40,634 nt of DNA, from the IMG/VR virus record IMGVR_UViG_2585427727_000015. One strand, written 5' to 3'. Both the position numbers and the translations under genes were made by a program. Below are positions 2,747-37,007 of the stretch, piece after piece. The stretch is from a virus (Duplodnaviria; Heunggongvirae; Uroviricota; Caudoviricetes). Each line of letters begins with the position of its first letter. The stretch's first letter is position 1. The notes beneath the pieces were generated by a model. It was not told where the DNA came from. It was given only the letters and a program-made list of their open reading frames with translations, and searched no databases.

Positions 2747-2795
2747 AAATAACTCTCTTGGTTGCAGTGCGGCGCGCGTGGCGCCGCGGTGGTGG

Positions 2796-3677
2796 TTACA
2801 TAGATGTTTCGTTTAATTCTTCCCGACGAACGCTGTAAACGTCGGTGGCTTTTGCCAGCAGTTCGTCATCATCTGAAAGTTTTTGTGCAATGTATTTGTA
2901 AGCCTTATCCAGTTCGGAGACAGTGCTGTAATTCATCGCTGCGCTGGTAAAGGCCATCAGCATTTCTTCTGGATCACGGCTATCCGCTTTACGCGTTTGC
3001 TCATCATGCTTTTTCACTGGTTTAGCGTTGATCAGACTGTTCATTCCCGCAGCAGTAGTCGTTTGCGGAGTAATGTCTCGCTCAACGCGCGGTGCCGTTT
3101 CCTGTAATTCGTCAGGGGTGTAAACACCGAGAAGCACATCAGGAGCGTGCAGGCGAGCCCATCGTTTCGTGCAAAGATAGGCAAGCTGCTGGCGCGGATC
3201 CTGTTCCCACAATGGAGAGTTACGCACTCCGGCTTGCGCCATACTGATGGTAAGCTCACGGGATTCTGCTTCTCCTTTAAGAACTGCTGACACAGTTACC
3301 GTCAGATTCGGTGATTTATCTGTTTTGCCGTTAACATTCGACCAGTCACCGCTCCAGCGATAATTCAGGCGTGTCGCTAGCAGGCTGGAAGAGGATACGA
3401 CCGCATTTACCAACTGTGCTTCGTAGCCTAACGTTCCGTTTACCACATGCGTTTTCTGCGCCACGGCGAAAGGGTTCATTCCCCACTGTGCCGCCTGCAT
3501 GGTCACCGCCAGACAATCGGCAGGTTTGCCTTCAAGATGTTTCGGTACAGTCGCTTTGCTTTGTGACATCAACTCCGCGAAACGCACCAGTTGATTCATG
3601 CCCTCCGGGCTGAAGATTGCCGCAGCAGTACCTACAGTTGCGCCTGGTTGTGATGTGATTGCGATATCATTGCTCAT
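2796..3677 (-). CDS. Single-strand annealing recombinase, RecT/Bet (Red-beta) family
   Basis: 293-aa ORF; C-terminal LCTKRWARLHAPDVLLGVYTPDELQE resembles the conserved Bet/RecT region; immediately downstream of and overlapping (ATGA) an exonuclease gene. Confidence 0.7.
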   Translation of the reverse strand: MSNDIAITSQPGATVGTAAAIFSPEGMNQLVRFAELMSQSKATVPKHLEGKPADCLAVTMQAAQWGMNPFAVAQKTHVVNGTLGYEAQLVNAVVSSSSLLATRLNYRWSGDWSNVNGKTDKSPNLTVTVSAVLKGEAESRELTISMAQAGVRNSPLWEQDPRQQLAYLCTKRWARLHAPDVLLGVYTPDELQETAPRVERDITPQTTTAAGMNSLINAKPVKKHDEQTRKADSRDPEEMLMAFTSAAMNYSTVSELDKAYKYIAQKLSDDDELLAKATDVYSVRREELNETSM

Positions 3678-4495
3678 ACGTACATATCCTGTTTACGTGC
3701 CCAGTCAGGGCGTTTAATAATTTCCACGCCGCCCCATTCATCATTGATGCGGCATTCGTGATAGGTATTCAGATCCCGGCGGAACAGAGCGTGCCCGGCA
3801 TCGACATCCGGCGCATCCAGCTCGAACACGCGTACCGGATACCGACCACAATCAATGCTTTCGCTCACGGCAAGAAAGAAAAAACCATGCGGCTGACCAG
3901 TAACCCTCATCGCTCCTTCGCGGTACATTGCGTCCTGCACGTGGTAGCGGAATTCCTCGATGTGGCGTGCAAAACGATCCATATCTGCAACCTTTTTCAC
4001 GTCGACGATCACGTTGTGCTCGTTCAGCCATTTGTCTGGACGAATGCGGCACAACTCACCAGTCTCTTCATCATTCCAGTACATTGATGCTTCGCAGTAA
4101 CCAGGTGCTTCCAGCATCCAGCGTGCCGCCGGGTGAGCCATTGCGCTATCACGCATCAGCTCCAGTTTCCGCCACTGCTCGGCATCAAGTACCGTAATCC
4201 CCATATCCGCTACATCACGAAGAAGCATTTCTTCGTCAGCTTTACCTTGTTTCGTCCGACGATCGAACTTCGGTGAAACAATGAAGCGTTTGTCGAATTC
4301 TCCAGGCTCCAGAAGCAGACAGTGCAATGCGGTTCCCATATCCAGTGCAGACTTTTTCTCTTCGTCTTCTGGTGCTGCCTGAACCCATTTAAGAAGCGCC
4401 GGATTCTTGGCAACCATGTCCAGTTGCGACTTACTCACGCCGTCACCGGCGTGGTAGTCTTCGTTGCTGATGTCGAAATAAATTCCCGGTTTCAT
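3674..4495 (-). CDS. Recombination exonuclease (RecE/YqaJ-like PD-(D/E)XK nuclease)
   Basis: 273-aa ORF, N-terminal DISNEDYHAGDGVSKSQL motif and acidic/lysine catalytic-like residues; paired with RecT-like gene as a two-gene recombination module. Confidence 0.65.
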   Translation of the reverse strand: MKPGIYFDISNEDYHAGDGVSKSQLDMVAKNPALLKWVQAAPEDEEKKSALDMGTALHCLLLEPGEFDKRFIVSPKFDRRTKQGKADEEMLLRDVADMGITVLDAEQWRKLELMRDSAMAHPAARWMLEAPGYCEASMYWNDEETGELCRIRPDKWLNEHNVIVDVKKVADMDRFARHIEEFRYHVQDAMYREGAMRVTGQPHGFFFLAVSESIDCGRYPVRVFELDAPDVDAGHALFRRDLNTYHECRINDEWGGVEIIKRPDWARKQDMYV

Positions 4496-4965: not shown

Positions 4966-5042
4966 TTACCGTTGAGGTAATAATTATGCGTATTTGGTTT
5001 GGTGTCAATAGATATGAGTTAAAAAAATTACCCATTAGGTAA
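4966..5042 (-). promoter_or_regulatory. Leftward early promoter (PL-like) with two operators TTACC-N5-GGTAA
   Basis: Minus-strand TTGACA (5003-5008) and -10-like TAATTA (about 4981-4986); perfect palindromes at 4966-4980 (overlapping +1) and 5028-5042 (upstream of -35), centre-to-centre 62 bp. Confidence 0.6.
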
Positions 5043-5099: not shown

Positions 5100-5684
5100 T
5101 TATTGTTTGTTTTTTTCGTTCTGGTTGATGACAAATTCAATGTAACTTTCGATCTTTGCTTTCTCGGTTTCGGGTAACAATGCGTAGCGCGAGCGGTCAT
5201 AGTTGATGGTCGCAGGGTCGTGCGGGTGAATCAGTAATTCATAGCCGTGACGCCCGAATGCGGATGCAACATTCTCCAGGGTGGAAATGGAAACGCTGAC
5301 CTCATTGTTTAACAGGCGGCTGATTGTCACCTGGGCGACGCCGGATGCGCGGTGAAGTTTTCCCTGTGTTGAAAGGTCGCGGCTTTCGCTCATCCAGCGT
5401 TCCAGGTTGTGAGCCGCCAGCTGACCAATGTCGCTTGGGCCGACAGGCTGAAAACCTTCCTGAGAAAGCGAGCGATCGATATCAAGCCAGTTACGTGGTT
5501 TATTGGCGGCAGCTTCAATTTTTCGCGCAACCTGGTCGCCGATAACCTTCTTGCCAAGAGCCCAGCGGTTTACCAGATTTGCCTGAGTTCCAAGTTTTTC
5601 TGCCATCCGCGTCTGAACACCATTGAATTCACGGTCGATCAAGTCGTTGAGATTTTGCCTGCGGACGTCCTGGATACTTTTCAT
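5100..5684 (-). CDS. Prophage repressor (CI-like; XRE-type HTH, possibly two HTH-like segments; no S24 peptidase domain evident)
   Basis: 194-aa ORF divergent from Cro-like gene; HTH-like segment TRMAEKLGTQANLVNRWALGKK and a second ASGVAQVTISRLLNNEVSVSISTLENVASAFG; flanked on both sides by operator palindromes. Confidence 0.7.
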   Translation of the reverse strand: MKSIQDVRRQNLNDLIDREFNGVQTRMAEKLGTQANLVNRWALGKKVIGDQVARKIEAAANKPRNWLDIDRSLSQEGFQPVGPSDIGQLAAHNLERWMSESRDLSTQGKLHRASGVAQVTISRLLNNEVSVSISTLENVASAFGRHGYELLIHPHDPATINYDRSRYALLPETEKAKIESYIEFVINQNEKNKQ

Positions 5685-15218: not shown

Positions 15219-15295
15219 TGGCGTGGCATGCAGGATTCGAACCTGCGACCAACCGCTTAGAAGGCGGTTGCTCTGTCCAACTGAGCTAATGCCAC
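15219..15295 (-). tRNA. tRNA-Arg (anticodon UCU, reads AGA), argU-like
   Basis: 77-nt cloverleaf: acceptor GTGGCAT/ATGCCAC, D-arm GCTC...GAGC, anticodon stem ACCGC/GCGGT with loop CTTCTAA, T-arm GCAGG-TTCGAAT-CCTGC, 3' GCCA. Confidence 0.9.
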
Positions 15296-32484: not shown

Positions 32485-33117
32485 TTAATGCAGTTTATCT
32501 TTGCTTATAACCAGTAGTCTGTGGGTATGCACATCTTTATCACTGCCCCAACAGAAATCAGCCCACTGGCTATAGAAATCATCCCATGATGCCATGAAGC
32601 TAAGAGGTCTATCTTCTTCAGAGCCATCTGAAACGTATACATTATATCCTGGGGTGTTTATAGCCCAAGAAATCATTCTTTCCCAGAATCTTCTCCCATC
32701 GATTGTTTGTTGCTCATCAGATACAACGATCGCATATTGCTCTAGGAAGAACTGAAAAAAAATCTGAGGCAAACCATGAACAGCACGGTCATGAATAACA
32801 TTAGGCGTACGCCATACCATGATCTGCGTACATGTTCTTTTGGCTTCGACGATATCTTCCCGAAAGATTAACTTAACCGCATACACCGTTTCTGGAGTAT
32901 CGCTGGTAGTAATCATTCTGTAATGATCGCCATTACAAGATTTTACAAGGCGATAACCATAAGGTGTTGTGAATCCCGGAAGAACGAAATCAACCACACC
33001 TTTCGCTAAGTAGCTTTCGGTGTGACTAGTGTTCTTCTCAGACATGTTCAGTTTTCTATCGAAATCTGCTTCTGGGATAATGTATGGCATCGCTTTTCTT
33101 GTTGTATTTGTTCTCAT
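32485..33117 (-). CDS. Orphan hypothetical protein (210 aa), own repressible promoter and terminator
   Basis: Strong SD GGGAGGA 5 nt before ATG 33117; no recognised motif. Confidence 0.6.
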   Translation of the reverse strand: MRTNTTRKAMPYIIPEADFDRKLNMSEKNTSHTESYLAKGVVDFVLPGFTTPYGYRLVKSCNGDHYRMITTSDTPETVYAVKLIFREDIVEAKRTCTQIMVWRTPNVIHDRAVHGLPQIFFQFFLEQYAIVVSDEQQTIDGRRFWERMISWAINTPGYNVYVSDGSEEDRPLSFMASWDDFYSQWADFCWGSDKDVHTHRLLVISKDKLH

Positions 33118-33176: not shown

Positions 33177-33219
33177 TTACCCTTGAGGTAATAGTACGCT
33201 ATTCACCCCCAGTCTGCAA
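33177..33219 (-). promoter_or_regulatory. Promoter TTGCAG-N17-TACTAT with operator TTACCCTTGAGGTAA at +1
   Basis: Minus-strand -35 at 33214-33219, -10 at 33191-33196, perfect palindrome 33177-33191. Confidence 0.55.
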
Positions 33220-33263: not shown

Positions 33264-33920
33264 TCAGAAGAACCCTGCCTTGTCGTTGATGTACTCCGCG
33301 TGCGTCTGGATATCACGCAGGCATTTGCTCACACCAACGATGTAGCAGAACATGGTGGTCAGCTCCGCCGCCGCGCCCGATACGTCATGCCCGTCTTCCT
33401 GTAACTGGTTCAGCAAATTCATCAGCAGTGAGTTCTCCGTCAGGCCGAGAACACCAGACGGCGAATGAATCAGGCTCCGGTAGCCGGGCTTCAGCGGTGC
33501 ACTGTATTCTTTTTTGTCTTCCAGCTTGATCGCCTCCATAATGGCGGGCATGAAGCCTGACAAGACCTTCTCCACTTTTGTTTCTTGTTGTCTTAAACGT
33601 TTCTCGCATTCAATGAAGTAGCGTCGCACCTGGCGACCTTTTTCGTTACGCTCGACCATCGCCAGCTCTTTGGCTGTATCAAGGGTGAGGTGGTACTCTT
33701 TGCGGTTGTGTCCGCCTCTACCAGATGTTTGCTTTCCCAAATTGGAAAGCAAAATATAGTCTTGATTTTCAATGAATTCGTATTCTGAAATGCGATTTGT
33801 AATCCATGCTGCAAACACCTTTTTAACACCTAAAAAAGCGTGCAGATCGCGGGCATTACAAAGTAGGGCTGTTTCGTTAGATATAGTGCCGTTGAATACG
33901 GGGATGAGTTGAGCGTTCAT
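33264..33920 (-). CDS. ant: Antirepressor, AntA/AntB N-terminal domain family
   Basis: 218-aa ORF; N-terminal [39 protein letters not shown]...[27 protein letters not shown] matches the AntA/AntB antirepressor domain pattern. Confidence 0.7.
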
Positions 33921-34078
33921 GATGGCGTCTCCACTTAGCGAATTACATCACCACCGCTGAGACCAATCAGATGGTGGTGAACTGAACGGAGTTGGTCTTA
34001 CCGGCCTAAGTGGTACCGGCGTCCTTTCGGACCCCCATTCAGCCCACCATAATTCTGGCATGACTGTGCTATACGCAT

Positions 34079-34234
34079 AAAAAAACCACGTCTGGCGTGG
34101 TATGCGCCACTTAGTAATCCGGGAGACCAATCCCGGCACTGGATTTTGCCAGTGCCTGATTACTATGGCACAAGAGGAGTGCGATGTAAATTTACCGCAA
34201 AGGTAAATATAAGCACTCCACTTGGTAATTGCAA
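34079..34234 (-). promoter_or_regulatory. Promoter (TTGCAA-N17-TATATT) + operator at +1 (34192-34206) + structured leader + intrinsic terminator (34079-34100) upstream of ant; candidate attenuator or about 120-nt sRNA
   Basis: -35 34229-34234, -10 34206-34211 on minus strand; two-hairpin element 34113-34164; terminator CCACG-CCAGA-CGTGG + T7 at 34079-34100. Confidence 0.45.
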
Positions 34235-34237
34235 ACC

Positions 34238-34495
34238 TTATCTGGTTTGCTTTCGTAATTGTTCGGCACAATAGTCGAGATGTGTTTGCAGATCCTGCAT
34301 AGACATCTGTGAGCTGGTGACGTAGTTAATCAGTGCAGTCAGTTCGGCAAGTGGGCCATCGACATTAAATCCATCCTTATCGAGATCCCGGAGTAATTTC
34401 ATCAAGTGCGATCCCTCCACCAGTGACCTGACGCCTCCCGGCGTGTGAATCCTTTCGGTAAATCCGTCTTCCAGTGGATAGTTATACTGCTGCAT
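34238..34495 (-). CDS. Small protein (85 aa; 90 aa if started at 34510) homologous to the C-terminal domain of the adjacent Ant; LexA-box-controlled
   Basis: HTPGGVRSLVEGSHLMKLLRDLDKDGFNVDGPLAELTAL...MQDLQTHLDYC aligns with Ant residues [39 protein letters not shown]...[11 protein letters not shown]; SD GGAGAAG before ATG 34495. Confidence 0.6.
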   Translation of the reverse strand: MQQYNYPLEDGFTERIHTPGGVRSLVEGSHLMKLLRDLDKDGFNVDGPLAELTALINYVTSSQMSMQDLQTHLDYCAEQLRKQTR

Positions 34496-34517
34496 CTTAA
34501 TCTTCTCCATGCAATAA

Positions 34518-34533
34518 CTGTATATTTATACAG
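34518..34533. promoter_or_regulatory. LexA (SOS) box CTGTATATTTATACAG overlapping the promoter of the Ant-paralog gene
   Basis: CTGT-N8-ACAG with AT-rich spacer, one change from consensus CTGTATATATATACAG; overlaps extended -10-like TGTATAAAT on minus strand, about 20 nt upstream of the ORF. Confidence 0.7.
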
Positions 34534-34572
34534 TAGCAAATAATTTGTTTGCTATCCAGCACGTTTTGCAAA

Positions 34573-34587
34573 TTACCTGAAAGGTAA
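34573..34587. promoter_or_regulatory. Operator-like palindrome TTACCTGAAAGGTAA in divergent region between Ant-paralog gene and tailspike
   Basis: Perfect copy, identical over 17 nt to the site at 15618. Confidence 0.5.
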
Positions 34588-34691: not shown

Positions 34692-37007
34692 ATGACGGTC
34701 TCAACCGAAGTTGACCACAACGAATACACAGGTAACGGCGTTACGACATCGTTTCCGTATACTTTTCGAATTTTCAGAAAATCAGACCTGGTTGTTCAGG
34801 TGTCTGACCTGAACGGGAACGTAACAGAATTGGTTCTGGATACCGGTTATACGGTAACTGGGGCGGGCACTTATAGTGGCGGTTCAGTGGTTCTGCCGTC
34901 TCCGCTTGCTGCTGGCTGGCGAATTACGATAGATCGTGTGCTTGATGTAGTGCAGGAGACAGATCTTCGCAATCAGGGAAAATTTTTCCCCGAAGTGCAT
35001 GAAGATGCTTTTGACTACCTGACGATGCTGATCCAGCAATGTTTTGGGTGGTTCAGACGTGCATTGATGAAACCATCTTTGCTTGCAAAATATTACGATG
35101 CAAAGCAAAACAAAATTTCTAACCTTGCAGATCCATCACTTGAGCAGGACGCTGTAAATAATCGCTCAATGCGTAATTATGTCGATGCTGCAATCGCCGG
35201 GGTTGTTGGTGGTTTTGGTTGGTTTATTCAGTATGGTTCTGGAGCAGTATACCGAACGTTCCAGGATAAGATGAGAGACACCGTTAGTGTTTGCGATTTT
35301 GGGGCAAAAGGCGATGGTATAACAGATGATACATCTGCATTGATCTTGGCTGCAGAATATGCACGAGAATCATCCAGAACATTACGAGCGGAAGGTAATT
35401 TTATTATTACGGAGACATTAAATCTTCGTAATGTCAGCCTCGAAATGACCAATGCTGTTTTTACCATATCCCACCCAGGAATAGGGGTATTGCTTGGCGG
35501 GAATGCATCAAACCCTAACAACCCAAGACAAAACTTCGGAACGATTATCAGAAATTCTGGTATTTCATCTGAAACGACACCGGATATTCGTATTATCGGG
35601 GCAAAAGGGCAGCATATAAACATTGAGCGTTGCGACTACTTACAGTTATATGCAAATTATAATGCTTCGGTGGCATCGACGGATTATTCAATAGCATACT
35701 CAACCTTTAACCTGAAAAAGGTCGATACAATTCATTTTCTTGGAGTTGAGAAAGGATGGATAAATGAAAACTATTTTTATCTGAATCGTACGAATAATAT
35801 CATTTTCGCTGATAATCCATATCATCATAACCACAATAAGTTTTATGGTGGAACTATGGAGGGGGCAGGTAAAATTGATATTCAAAGAGGTGATAACAAT
35901 TACTTCTACGGGTTTCGTTTTGAACGATATCCATCATCCCAAACTAACCAACAGTTGATAATTAACTTTGGTGAATATACGTGGAATAACTCAATTGAAG
36001 CTACATGGTTAAGTTCTCCTTACTATACAAATGAGCCATACAATCCATCACCTTACACTTATGTCGAGGTAACTGATAATGGCAAGGGGAATGCAGTATT
36101 TCATATTCAGGAAAATATATCCGATGAAGTAACATTGTTTTCTTTAAATGCTAACACCCCATTTATATCCAGTGCTAACAATGGAGAAGTTGGTGTATTA
36201 GCATTTCAAACAGATGTAGATGGTTTATATAATATCCGTCACCTGGTTTCTTCTAAGTTTGCTTTTATGCGGAATTTTGGGTTGTTATGGGAATCTGGAG
36301 ATGTACCAGTAAGAAATGGTGATATGTTTACATTCTCAGCAGATACGGCATCGTTTCGCATTTACCTGTATGCATTAGATGGAGATGGGAATGTCATAAC
36401 TTCACAAACAGAAGCAATAACTTCTTCTATGCAATGGGATTCATCTAACCATAGATATGCTACTGTTGCTAACATTTCTTCCATTAAGATCAGGATTAAT
36501 AATGAAGGGGTTCCAGTTAGTGCAATTCGTTTAGCTGTGTATTCTGGTGGTAATGTAGCGAATACTGCATTTTCATGGCTATGCTTAACTGGTAGATATT
36601 ACAAAAATAGCACATCCTTGCCAAGGAAAAGAAAAGATAACTTCACCTTAAAACAAGGAAAAGCAATTACTTATTATAGTGATACTGATATTAGTATGGC
36701 TAACATTGGTTCAGGAATTACCTGTTATAAAACCGATTTATCTGAACTCAAAATTAATCTTGTAAGGGGCAGGTATGTAGTGAAATCAATTTCAGGCAGT
36801 GAAATATATGTATACCAAGGAACAGTCACTTATTACCCTCCATTCAGTGATATCAAATTGGTATATACGGATGGGGTTGAAAATAAATTATTAGATGTGC
36901 AAAACATCTCTTCAGGAAAGATTACTCTTGCAGATACAGTACCATCAGCTATATCTGCAGGCGATTTTGTAGATGTTATTGTTACAAAGACGAAATCTAT
37001 TTTATGA
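34692..37007 (+). CDS. Tailspike protein (conserved N-terminal particle-binding domain, AT-rich C-terminal receptor-binding domain, likely O-antigen depolymerase)
   Basis: 771-aa ORF; N-terminus MTVSTEVDHNEYTGNGVTTSFPYTFRIF matches (from memory) the N-terminal domain shared by epsilon15/phiV10-type tailspikes; C-terminal two-thirds markedly lower GC. Confidence 0.8.
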   Translation: MTVSTEVDHNEYTGNGVTTSFPYTFRIFRKSDLVVQVSDLNGNVTELVLDTGYTVTGAGTYSGGSVVLPSPLAAGWRITIDRVLDVVQETDLRNQGKFFPEVHEDAFDYLTMLIQQCFGWFRRALMKPSLLAKYYDAKQNKISNLADPSLEQDAVNNRSMRNYVDAAIAGVVGGFGWFIQYGSGAVYRTFQDKMRDTVSVCDFGAKGDGITDDTSALILAAEYARESSRTLRAEGNFIITETLNLRNVSLEMTNAVFTISHPGIGVLLGGNASNPNNPRQNFGTIIRNSGISSETTPDIRIIGAKGQHINIERCDYLQLYANYNASVASTDYSIAYSTFNLKKVDTIHFLGVEKGWINENYFYLNRTNNIIFADNPYHHNHNKFYGGTMEGAGKIDIQRGDNNYFYGFRFERYPSSQTNQQLIINFGEYTWNNSIEATWLSSPYYTNEPYNPSPYTYVEVTDNGKGNAVFHIQENISDEVTLFSLNANTPFISSANNGEVGVLAFQTDVDGLYNIRHLVSSKFAFMRNFGLLWESGDVPVRNGDMFTFSADTASFRIYLYALDGDGNVITSQTEAITSSMQWDSSNHRYATVANISSIKIRINNEGVPVSAIRLAVYSGGNVANTAFSWLCLTGRYYKNSTSLPRKRKDNFTLKQGKAITYYSDTDISMANIGSGITCYKTDLSELKINLVRGRYVVKSISGSEIYVYQGTVTYYPPFSDIKLVYTDGVENKLLDVQNISSGKITLADTVPSAISAGDFVDVIVTKTKSIL

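Follow-up and report, generated by a model that had tools for sequence, protein, structure and literature searches.

A Uetakevirus antirepressor locus that probably joins SOS control and C4 antisense RNA control on one repressor

The locus at positions 33264-34587 of the window, i.e., the whole 40,634-nt stretch of viral DNA analysed here, is the antirepressor region of a temperate E. coli phage, a phiV10/epsilon15-like podophage of the genus Uetakevirus. Two known systems are probably joined at this one locus and converge on one repressor, Rep: a small antirepressor gene, ant-S, which is gated by the SOS response, and a larger one, ant-L, which is gated by a C4-type antisense RNA. The parts are each known, and only their combination appears to be undescribed within the literature searchable here. 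Judged from sequence comparison, two features look undescribed: the C4-gated Ant carries a C-terminal domain paralogous to the small Ant in 39/39 loci with ant-S upstream, and a Rep-operator-like palindrome lies on the cassette promoter, among the cassettes inspected, in this phage group only. The functional steps proposed for this phage are drawn from orthologs or from covariation.

All features listed in the initial annotation of this DNA are present where it placed them, and its interpretation stands in part, i.e., SOS induction through a LexA-controlled small antirepressor (by orthology), an operator on the promoter before the large ant and a short terminated sRNA, which is predicted. However, its view of this wiring as undescribed does not hold, since both the small Ant and its control by LexA have been published and the leader corresponds to the Rfam families isrK and C4; nor does an attenuator as the main gate.

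Among 5,426 complete E. coli genomes, 74 contain the full locus and 866 contain parts of it. In current annotation the small Ant is "hypothetical", no RNA features are given under the match, and the C4 region is an "Ash family protein" in some records. No PADLOC defence-system model matched any of the three proteins encoded here. The locus has practical weight, since phages of this group are under study as prophages of E. coli O157, APEC and Klebsiella.

The stand-alone antirepressor, its LexA box and Rep

The repressor gene, the small antirepressor gene and the associated DNA sites lie at the following positions.

5100-5684, minus strand: rep, outside the coordinates of the locus; 194-aa non-cleavable repressor (PDB 5D50_A), the presumed target of both antirepressors
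34238-34495, minus strand: ant-S, 85-aa stand-alone antirepressor, ortholog of SPC32H Ant; Shine-Dalgarno GGAGAAG; phrog_450 match
34516-34535, unstranded: LexA (SOS) box TACTGTATAAATATACAGTT, overlapping the small-ant promoter and including its -10-like TATAAA; 18/20 against the consensus
34534-34554, minus strand: inverted repeat TAGCAAA-N7-TTTGCTA abutting the LexA box; kept only in E. coli-type loci
34573-34587, unstranded: Rep-operator-like palindrome TTACC-N5-GGTAA; lies upstream of the promoter of the small ant, divergent from the tailspike gene; unchanged in 11/11 related phages
34192-34206, unstranded: Rep-operator-like palindrome TTACCTTTGCGGTAA at -7 to +8 of the cassette promoter P1 (overlapping its -10/+1), just upstream of the -35 of P2
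33177-33191, unstranded: third Rep-operator-like palindrome, between ant-L and a downstream 210-aa ORF

The ant-S protein is 86.7% identical over 83 aa to SPC32H_020, annotated "ant", and matches chain E of PDB 5D50 with an E value of 4e-46, so that what had been described as a new split or duplicated Ant domain is an ortholog of the characterised SPC32H Ant. The possibility that this small ORF is a decayed remnant of the large Ant was ruled out, as ant-S is a conserved element that occurs by itself in the Salmonella, Enterobacter and Klebsiella relatives, and a structure has been solved for the SPC32H version. Rep matches PDB 5D50_A (SPC32H Repressor) over its full length (E 4e-42). As the initial annotation had noted, the repressor lacks an autocleavage domain: it contains HTH domains only, with no S24 peptidase domain.

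The LexA box previously placed over the promoter of the 85-aa gene aligns with the SPC32H box. On the minus strand it reads CTGTATAAATATACAG (34518-34533), and the 20-mer matches TACTGTATATATATACAGTA at 18/20 positions. The TGT-N8-ACAG core is kept in 11/11 related phages, SPC32H included, while the first base of the box is A rather than C in three Klebsiella phages. The pattern CTGT-N8-ACAG occurs three times in the window against 0.38 expected; the remaining two sites (15087 and 19630) are poor matches as LexA boxes, at 12/20 and 9/20, and are probably due to chance. This phage and SPC32H have the small protein, the repressor and the LexA box in common, and this orthology supports the view that SOS induction proceeds through a small LexA-controlled antirepressor acting on a non-cleavable repressor. 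LexA bound to the promoter-overlapping box would keep ant-S off until DNA damage removes LexA; Ant-S would then bind Rep and strip it from its operators, as shown for the SPC32H ortholog. By this orthology, ant-S is likely the SOS key of the phage, with SOS-dependent expression leading to Rep release.

The palindrome TTACC-N5-GGTAA is probably the binding site of Rep, judged by the distribution of its sites. The window contains 15 copies (0.74 expected) and SPC32H 18 (0.5 expected), with clusters located in the rep-cro gap, and copies at 4966, 5028, 5740 and 5788 flank rep here.

The RNA cassette and the antisense gating of ant-L

Between ant-S and ant-L lies a cassette of two promoters and two RNAs, whose elements, together with ant-L, are as follows.

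34206-34234, minus strand: P1, cassette promoter TTGCAA-N17-TATATT, score 9/12
34162-34190, minus strand: P2, promoter TTTACA-N17-TGcCATAGT, near-invariant in 39/40 of the cassette upstream sequences listed
34079-34155, minus strand: IsrK-type sRNA with two hairpins, linker and intrinsic terminator (RF01394, 67.7 bits, gathering score 50, model positions 1-77 of 77)
34124-34130, minus strand: site b1, loop of IsrK hairpin 2, within the IsrK-type sRNA
34107-34114, minus strand: site a1, IsrK linker, within the IsrK-type sRNA
33970-34054, minus strand: C4-type antisense RNA, 85 nt (RF01695, 61.2 bits, gathering score 45)
34006-34013, minus strand: C4 loop a', pairing over 8 nt with a1/a2
33992-33998, minus strand: C4 b', single-stranded, pairing over 7 nt with b1/b2
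33960-33966, minus strand: C4 target b2, complementary to b'
33931-33938, minus strand: C4 target a2, complementary to a'; overlaps the ant-L Shine-Dalgarno GGAG (33929-33932)
33264-33920, minus strand: ant-L, 218-aa antirepressor with an AntA domain (aa 22-92) and an SPC32H-Ant-like C-terminal domain (aa ~135-216)

The second promoter reported between the two genes, TTGCAA-N17-TATATT at 34234-34206, is positionally conserved. Its score of 9/12 is unremarkable alone; the position is conserved, and a TTGnnn/TAnnnT pair is retained there in diverged relatives. The repressor-type operator ascribed to this promoter upstream of the large ant corresponds to the TTACC-N5-GGTAA palindrome at 34192-34206, which keeps the same position in 38/40 upstream sequences of cassettes in the small-ant/Ant-like-C-domain context and is absent from the cassettes of other phages inspected. 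The predicted start of P2 coincides with nucleotide 1 of the IsrK model (34155).

The two-hairpin element and terminator were likewise found, the former at about 34116-34155 and the latter at 34079-34101, ending 159 nt before the ant ATG, and the short terminated sRNA proposed upstream of the large ant is predicted as an IsrK-type RNA (RF01394), with a fold z-score of -2.9. The C4 RNA (fold z-score -5.5) was overlooked; it sits inside the 159-nt stretch that had been taken as leader. A c4-a1b1 model scored 38.4, below its gathering threshold of 46.7. The order isrK, C4, antirepressor was observed in 7/7 related phage loci carrying the large Ant. A conserved protein-coding ORF across C4, like orf45 of Gifsy-1 or the PGAP "Ash family protein" in ZX5, was considered and rejected, because the a' loop varies from 7 to 13 nt in length and shifts the frame among relatives.

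The pairing of C4 with its targets was assessed by an alignment-free covariation test on 107 unique related loci with cross-locus controls. Among these loci, 22 variants of the a' loop and 11 of b' were found. Complementarity of at least 7 nt within a locus was observed in 74% (a'-a1, the weakest of the four interactions), 92% (a'-a2), 95% (b'-b1) and 98% (b'-b2) of the loci, against 4-16% in the cross-locus controls. In a 21-locus alignment, b'-b1 and b'-b2 were 99.3% and 97.9% paired, respectively, with compensatory changes in 5/7 pairs of each, against at most 50% paired in slid controls; the a' pairings were assessed by the alignment-free test, since variable loop lengths misalign the a'-a1 and a'-a2 columns. 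Based on this covariation, C4 pairing over the ant-L Shine-Dalgarno (GGAG, 9 nt before the ATG) is the best-supported of the candidate control steps. The main gate on the large Ant would be an antisense RNA acting in trans or in cis over the ribosome-binding site, rather than the attenuator suggested earlier.

In the proposed mechanism, the cassette would be driven by two tandem promoters, P1 under the Rep-type palindrome and P2 starting exactly at the sRNA. The transcript would be an IsrK-like sRNA carrying b1 and a1, which either stops at the terminator or reads on into C4, b2/a2 and ant-L. By pairing with a2 and b2, the a' and b' segments of C4 would block the ant-L Shine-Dalgarno, as the covariation suggests, so that ant-L would be silent in the lysogen and in any incoming phage of the same RNA code. 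The terminated IsrK-like RNA, which bears the sites of the mRNA, may titrate C4 and thereby switch on ant-L translation, as suggested by experiments on Gifsy-1, where IsrK provided in trans turns on translation of the antirepressor (Hershko-Shalev et al. 2016, PMC4825925). This decoy role is our own reading; the Gifsy-1 authors explained the activation by refolding of the mRNA and not by C4 titration (PMC4825925).

The shared C-terminal domain and the role of ant-L

The N-terminal domain of ant-L, of a DNA-binding type, is AntA (Pfam PF08346, residues 22-92) and scores 91.8 bits against a cut-off of 27 (4.2e-26). While phrog_377 matches ant-L over its full length, phrog_450 matches only aa 135-216, at 3.9e-36. 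The similarity noted between the 85-aa protein and the C-terminal domain of the large Ant amounts to 42% identity over 74 aa (E 2e-16), and the structural comparison of the two that had been called for is answered by the sequence match of ant-L aa 137-213 to the solved chain 5D50_E (E 4.6e-14). On this homology, the Ant-L C-domain may be expected to bind Rep, and Ant-L would most likely attack the same Rep as Ant-S. It may reinforce induction once Rep falls, or act on entry into a cell without a matching C4 code, in the manner of P1/P7 heteroimmunity. Ant-L looks accessory, because the cassette or the second Ant is missing in several relatives: no second Ant-like match was found in any of the twelve Salmonella-phage records with a small Ant (SPC32H and epsilon15 among them), the RNA cassette is absent from SPC32H, BUCT711 and BUCT554, each checked directly, and the large Ant of phiV10 is truncated within its C-domain.

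It is very unlikely that the shared C-terminal domain is an oligomerisation module only, with Ant-L acting through its AntA or Bro-N domain as a DNA-binding regulator, or on the repressors of other prophages, rather than on its own Rep. The SPC32H Ant is reported to be tetrameric (a tetramer in 5D50), the N-domains AntA, Bro-N, Rha and ORF6N are what is conserved among the C4-gated proteins of unrelated phages, and trans-acting antirepressors that hit non-cognate repressors are known, all of which would suit such a role. However, the Ant-like C-domain is present in ant-L at 39/39 loci with ant-S upstream and at only 4/68 other loci, and its divergence tracks that of ant-S (Spearman 0.78) while the N-domain is swapped, being AntA here and Bro-N in relatives. 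Moreover, in the ZX5 paper, the only experimental work on an E. coli member, which studied the large Ant and overlooked the LexA-controlled Ant and the RNAs, overexpression of a large-Ant homolog with a ~90% identical C-domain lowered lysogens ~1000-fold and rep mRNA of the phage itself by 75%. A somewhat better case, though still an unlikely one, can be made for an Ant-L that has no part in the induction of its own prophage and serves, as in P1/P7 immI, solely as a weapon against immunity and as a marker of it: an infecting phage of differing code would make Ant-L, disable the shared Rep and escape, and the resident C4 would block same-code phages only. The E. coli members share Rep (ZX5 paper) and 90-100% identical Ant-L C-domains yet have at least five a'/b' codes, and the RNA codes reassort, with 5 codes among 27 near-identical E. 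coli-type loci; the number of a' and b' variants is the pattern expected from diversifying selection on specificity, and some fully functional relatives lack the cassette. Against this, the Rep-type palindrome on P1, which among the cassettes inspected is confined to this phage group, links transcription of the cassette to the status of the phage's own Rep, and the homologous Gifsy-1 isrK cassette contributes to the induction of its own prophage (PMC4825925). Such a role is also compatible with SOS-gated ant-S and C4-gated ant-L converging on Rep, and does not exclude it.

The model first proposed, in which induction is set off by a new LexA-controlled Ant domain, split or duplicated, the full Ant is held behind a repressor-controlled promoter and an attenuator or an sRNA of ~120 nt, and SOS read-through feeds forward into ant, now seems distinctly unlikely. 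The LexA box, the P1 operator and the terminator do exist, alternative folds are open to the full leader, a terminator search between the ant-S stop codon and the cassette predicted none, and the two genes are directly adjacent in 24/39 loci. However, the small protein is an already characterised SPC32H-type Ant, and the model leaves out C4, whose covarying Shine-Dalgarno complementarity is better supported than any other control step. In the other 15/39 loci, ant-S and the cassette are split by insertions of 0.6-1.2 kb, with opposite-strand ORFs in the two annotated examples; thus, obligatory co-transcription is not conserved and transcriptional coupling is not required. The cassette also retains its own promoters everywhere among the upstream sequences listed. 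A feed-forward cascade from ant-S into ant-L is possible.

Beyond the convergence of both antirepressors on Rep, we tentatively suggest, as a possible rather than a probable reading, a layered commitment-and-immunity device. Ant-S would fire first, loss of Rep would open P1, excess terminated IsrK-like RNA would titrate C4, and Ant-L would be made and lock in induction. The reassorting a/b codes would form a second immunity specificity over one shared Rep, and one repressor-targeting module would serve under two sensors. If so, related Uetakeviruses with identical repressors could still induce or escape one another, and RNA-code diversity on a constant repressor background would make a directly testable heteroimmunity model for these prophages.

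Comparison with known systems

In SPC32H, Ant was reportedly described by Kim and Ryu in 2013 as a LexA-controlled antirepressor of the non-cleavable repressor Rep, the Rep-Ant complex is solved (PDB 5D50; reportedly by Kim et al. in 2016), and the SPC32H records annotate both ant and rep. The likeness to this switch is close: Ant is 87% identical, the homology of Rep spans its full length, the LexA box lies at the same place with the upstream TTACC-N5-GGTAA conserved, and the genomic slot, between the tailspike and ejection-protein genes, is the same. SPC32H differs in having the small Ant only, without isrK, C4 or a second antirepressor.

The P1 immI operon consists of the c4 antisense RNA, icd and ant, and a 1990 study by Citron and Schuster is reportedly the source for the c4 system of P1/P7. 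The present locus shares with P1/P7 immI a C4 RNA of the same Rfam family, an antirepressor as output, an operator of the main repressor on the operon promoter, and a'/b' segments complementary to upstream a1/b1 and downstream a2/b2, the latter over the ribosome-binding site; in both, the RNA codes differ between phages sharing a repressor type. In contrast to P1, there is no icd here (the gap from C4 to the ant-L ATG is only 49 nt), the Shine-Dalgarno covered by a2 is that of ant itself, and an intrinsic terminator makes the a1b1 region a discrete IsrK-type sRNA. The antirepressor and repressor are unrelated to P1 Ant and C1, and P1 is not known to have a LexA-controlled stand-alone copy of the Ant domain. 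By analogy, the locus is one that works like P1 immI, though it does not have the layout of the P1 operon.

Small proteins that inactivate a non-cleavable repressor and are encoded by genes with an SOS box also include 186 Tum, the Gifsy proteins GfoA/GfhA/GftA and N15 AntC. However, these belong to unrelated protein families, and a paralogous domain in a second, RNA-gated antirepressor is reported for none of them.

The isrK-orf45(STnc1160)-anrP region of Gifsy-1 has the identical order of isrK, C4-family RNA and antirepressor-like gene, its mRNA likewise arises by terminator read-through, alternative leader folds bring the middle of IsrK into pairing with the C4 region, and a separate LexA-controlled small antirepressor is also present. 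In Gifsy-1, however, the latter is encoded elsewhere in the genome and is dissimilar to AnrP; similarity between the ORF adjoining dinI and AnrP was not found (E 8.2), and the shared-domain pattern is not extended to Gifsy-1. The Gifsy-1 output was traced to the antiterminator AntQ, and a translated orf45 is needed there, whereas the frame of ORFs across C4 cannot be conserved here. The locus connects three separate literatures, on the SPC32H Rep/Ant structure, P1 immI and Gifsy-1 IsrK. It points to the SPC32H Ant fold as a portable repressor-targeting module, one that occurs as well in fusions with AntA or Bro-N domains under antisense-RNA control.

The small antirepressor and its LexA box

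The antirepressor locus lies on the minus strand, flanked by a tailspike gene (34692-37007, plus strand) and ejection-protein genes, in a phage that is a phiV10/epsilon15-like temperate podophage; the Uetakevirus Escherichia phage phiv142-3 is its nearest record, with 97.9% identity across 95% of the region. The initial annotation had proposed an SOS-wired antirepressor locus, and all the features that it listed were found where it had placed them. Its interpretation was partly supported. The locus consists of a known SOS-controlled antirepressor and an antisense cassette of the known isrK/C4 family. The first of these parts comprises the following.

34518-34533, LexA box, 18/20 match to the 20-nt consensus
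34238-34495, minus strand, 85-aa ORF (small Ant)

The small Ant is 86.7% identical to the SPC32H_020 product (GenBank "ant: anti-repressor protein") and matches chain E of PDB 5D50 ("Anti-repressor protein", E 4e-46), and the window repressor Rep matches over its full length chain A of the same entry ("Repressor", E 4e-42). Judged from its sequence, the small protein is an already known antirepressor of the SPC32H Ant type. The LexA box can be aligned with that of SPC32H, and the TGT-N8-ACAG core is kept in 11/11 related phages examined; in the window CTGT-N8-ACAG occurs at three sites vs. 0.38 expected, the two besides the LexA box being poor matches. Rep, a 194-aa protein, carries HTH domains only, in agreement with the earlier remark that it has no obvious autocleavage domain. 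In the SPC32H studies, Rep reportedly stays uncleaved during SOS, LexA is said to repress Ant expression via a box overlapping the ant promoter, and tetrameric Ant is said to bind Rep and free it from DNA. A secondary source confirms the Ant tetramer and the palindromic operators of SPC32H. The SOS arm of the proposed model is thus right but already published. Among 5,426 complete E. coli genomes, 74 contain the full locus, and in these the small Ant carries the label "hypothetical protein".

An inverted repeat, TAGCAAA-N7-TTTGCTA (34534-34554, minus strand), directly adjoins the LexA box. It is kept in E. coli-type phages and not in Salmonella or Klebsiella relatives, and a further regulator of small ant could bind there.

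The isrK/C4 cassette and the pairing of C4

The stretch that had been taken as a structured leader contains two RNA genes; the IsrK part (hairpins and terminator) had been seen, and the C4 RNA had been missed.

34079-34155, minus strand, isrK (RF01394), Rfam scan, full model, 67.7 bits vs. gathering threshold 50
33970-34054, minus strand, C4 antisense RNA (RF01695), Rfam scan, 61.2 bits vs. gathering threshold 45
b1 and a1, within the IsrK-like RNA, b1 in the hairpin 2 loop and a1 in the linker
b2 and a2, just upstream of large ant, a2 overlapping the Shine-Dalgarno GGAG

The two hairpins and the intrinsic terminator end 159 nt ahead of large ant; the c4-a1b1 model covers the first two hairpins with a score of 38.4, below its threshold of 46.7. 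The order isrK, C4, antirepressor is present in 7/7 related phage loci with a large Ant, and was not found in 3/3 related loci carrying the small Ant alone.

C4 is predicted to fold with a long closing stem, exposing a' as a hairpin loop (CCACUUAG) and b' as a single strand (AGACCAA); their complements, CUAAGUGG and UUGGUCU, are each found twice, as a1/a2 and b1/b2. The conserved stem arms of C4 were used to scan viral contigs, and 107 unique loci could be parsed, in which a' occurs in 22 variants and b' in 11.

Loci with at least 7 nt of complementarity between a loop and the target of its own locus
a'-a1, 74%
a'-a2, 92%
b'-b1, 95%
b'-b2, 98%

For loops set against the targets of loci with another code, this share was 4-16%. 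In a 21-locus alignment, b'-b1 was 99.3% and b'-b2 97.9% paired, with compensatory changes at 5/7 pairs in each, and slid controls on this alignment were paired at most 50%. Because of this three-way covariation, there is strong evidence that C4 would pair with both sets of sites, thereby occluding the ribosome-binding site of large ant. The predicted whole-leader fold pairs a'/b' in cis with a1/b1; in a predicted alternative, the 3' arm of the C4 stem pairs downstream, leaving b2 in a hairpin loop.

In phage ZX5 (L010, 2955-3068), a 37-aa "Ash family protein" called by PGAP sits over the C4 RNA, as does such a call in Hafnia phage yong2; the equivalent window ORF (33948-34061, minus strand) runs in another frame over part of its length. 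An RNA gene has probably been annotated as a protein here. The isrK/C4/ant cassette is present twice on some viral contigs (L030, 10249-11153; also L042 and L096). The two copies in L030 lie ~650 nt apart with identical a' loops and differing b' segments, and L096 has one Bro-N-type and one AntA-type large Ant.

Promoters and repressor-type operators

34234-34206, promoter-like site P1, TTGCAA-N17-TATATT
34192-34206, palindrome TTACCTTTGCGGTAA, overlapping the P1 -10 and start
34190-34162, P2, TTTACA-N17-TGcCATAGT, predicted start at nt 1 of the IsrK model

Of the 40 cassette upstream sequences listed, 39 have an almost unchanged P2 and 38 have the palindrome at a fixed place on the cassette promoter, with its centre at about -44 from the P2 start. 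The palindrome was not found on the cassettes of other phages inspected, where the promoters are of a plain TTGAC-N17-TATAGT type. Allowing one mismatch, TTACC-N5-GGTAA occurs in the window at 15 sites vs. 0.74 expected (4966, 5028, 5740, 5788, 6125, 8047, 8109, 12040, 12058, 14998, 15618, 33177, 34192, 34573 and 37672), near operon starts, four of them flanking the repressor gene. SPC32H has 18 sites vs. 0.5 expected, including three between rep and cro and another three downstream of rep. From this distribution we infer that TTACC-N5-GGTAA is the putative Rep operator and that Rep would repress P1; the spread further points to direct Rep control of many transcription units, terminase and tailspike included.

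The window sites (span 4966-37686) are often paired, 18-62 bp apart, and in phiV10 (L003, 2780-2830) a perfect palindrome of 41 bp, GGAGTGCTTATATTTACC-GCAAA-GGTAAATATAAGCACTCC, makes up the operator region. A tRNA gene (15222-15295, minus strand; Rfam tRNA, 73.3 bits) has repressor-type palindromes on both sides (14998, 15618), and occupies the position of the annotated tRNA-Arg in phiv142-3 and SPC32H.

The large antirepressor and known systems

33264-33920, minus strand, 218-aa ORF (large Ant), Pfam AntA domain

The large Ant consists of an AntA domain at its N-terminus and, at its C-terminus, a domain homologous to the small Ant (residues 135-216 match phrog_450, 3.9e-36; residues 137-213 match 5D50_E, 4.6e-14). 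The claimed alignment of the small protein with the C-terminus of the large one was reproduced, with 42% identity over 74 aa (E 2e-16). Small ant lies upstream on the same strand in 39 of the 107 loci, and an Ant-like C-domain is present in 39/39 of their large Ants vs. 4/68 in the remaining loci, at least two of these four being on contigs with a second cassette. The N-domains are swapped, AntA in the window and Bro-N in most relatives, and cassettes of other phages drive Rha, ORF6N or Bro-N+P22_AR_C proteins. C-domain divergence tracks small-Ant divergence (Spearman 0.78 across 39 phylogenetically non-independent loci), and the RNA codes reassort: 27 E. coli-type loci whose small Ants are nearly identical carry five a'/b' combinations. 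According to the ZX5 paper, ZX5, phiV10 and phiv142-3 have an identical repressor, and overexpression of the ZX5 large Ant lowers lysogens ~1000-fold and rep mRNA by 75%; LexA, SPC32H, the small Ant and any RNA are all unmentioned there. We conclude that the C-domain of the large Ant is the lineage-specific, putatively Rep-directed part, and that Rep is most likely the common target of both antirepressors.

The large Ant appears to be accessory, and no second Ant-like match was found in 12/12 Salmonella-phage records carrying the small Ant. An insertion separates the two ant genes in 15/39 loci; therefore, the read-through feed-forward link of the initial annotation is not conserved. The insertions (0.6-1.2 kb; e.g., 2780-3868 in TL-2011b, L004, and 2782-3697 in EC.W1-9, L011) fall precisely at the junction of the small-ant stop codon with the cassette promoter, which seems to be a hotspot for recombination or insertion. 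Where annotated, the ORFs that they carry run on the opposite strand. In phiV10 (L003, 3071-3750), a split or truncation has left the large Ant as 194 aa plus a 29-aa ORF, and most of the Ant-like C-domain is lost. Just downstream of large ant, a 210-aa ORF (32485-33117, minus strand; phrog_1349, unknown function) is preceded by a repressor-type palindrome (33177-33191) and gave no match in Pfam and PADLOC searches. It looks like a variable, moron-like cargo gene, because phiv142-3 similarity stops there.

Both systems in one locus, a common repressor-targeting domain and a lineage-specific repressor-type operator on the cassette promoter were not found described in the searchable literature, and the shared-domain pattern was not found in Gifsy-1. 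The predicted occlusion of the ribosome-binding site by C4 follows the immI logic of phages P1 and P7, a C4-type RNA control reportedly described by Citron and Schuster in 1990, and the genome-wide spread of palindromes is reminiscent of phage P1 with its scattered C1 operators. For APSE-7, isrK, C4 and the a'/b' regions are already marked together in GenBank records. Gifsy-1 has the same order as the window (isrK, the "orf45/STnc1160" region, anrP), and its two described conformers resemble the alternative folds of the window leader. There, IsrK in trans raises anrP translation >100-fold (PMC4825925), for which direct mRNA refolding is the explanation preferred by the authors (PMC4825925); in our reading, the terminated IsrK-type RNA would compete with the mRNA for C4.
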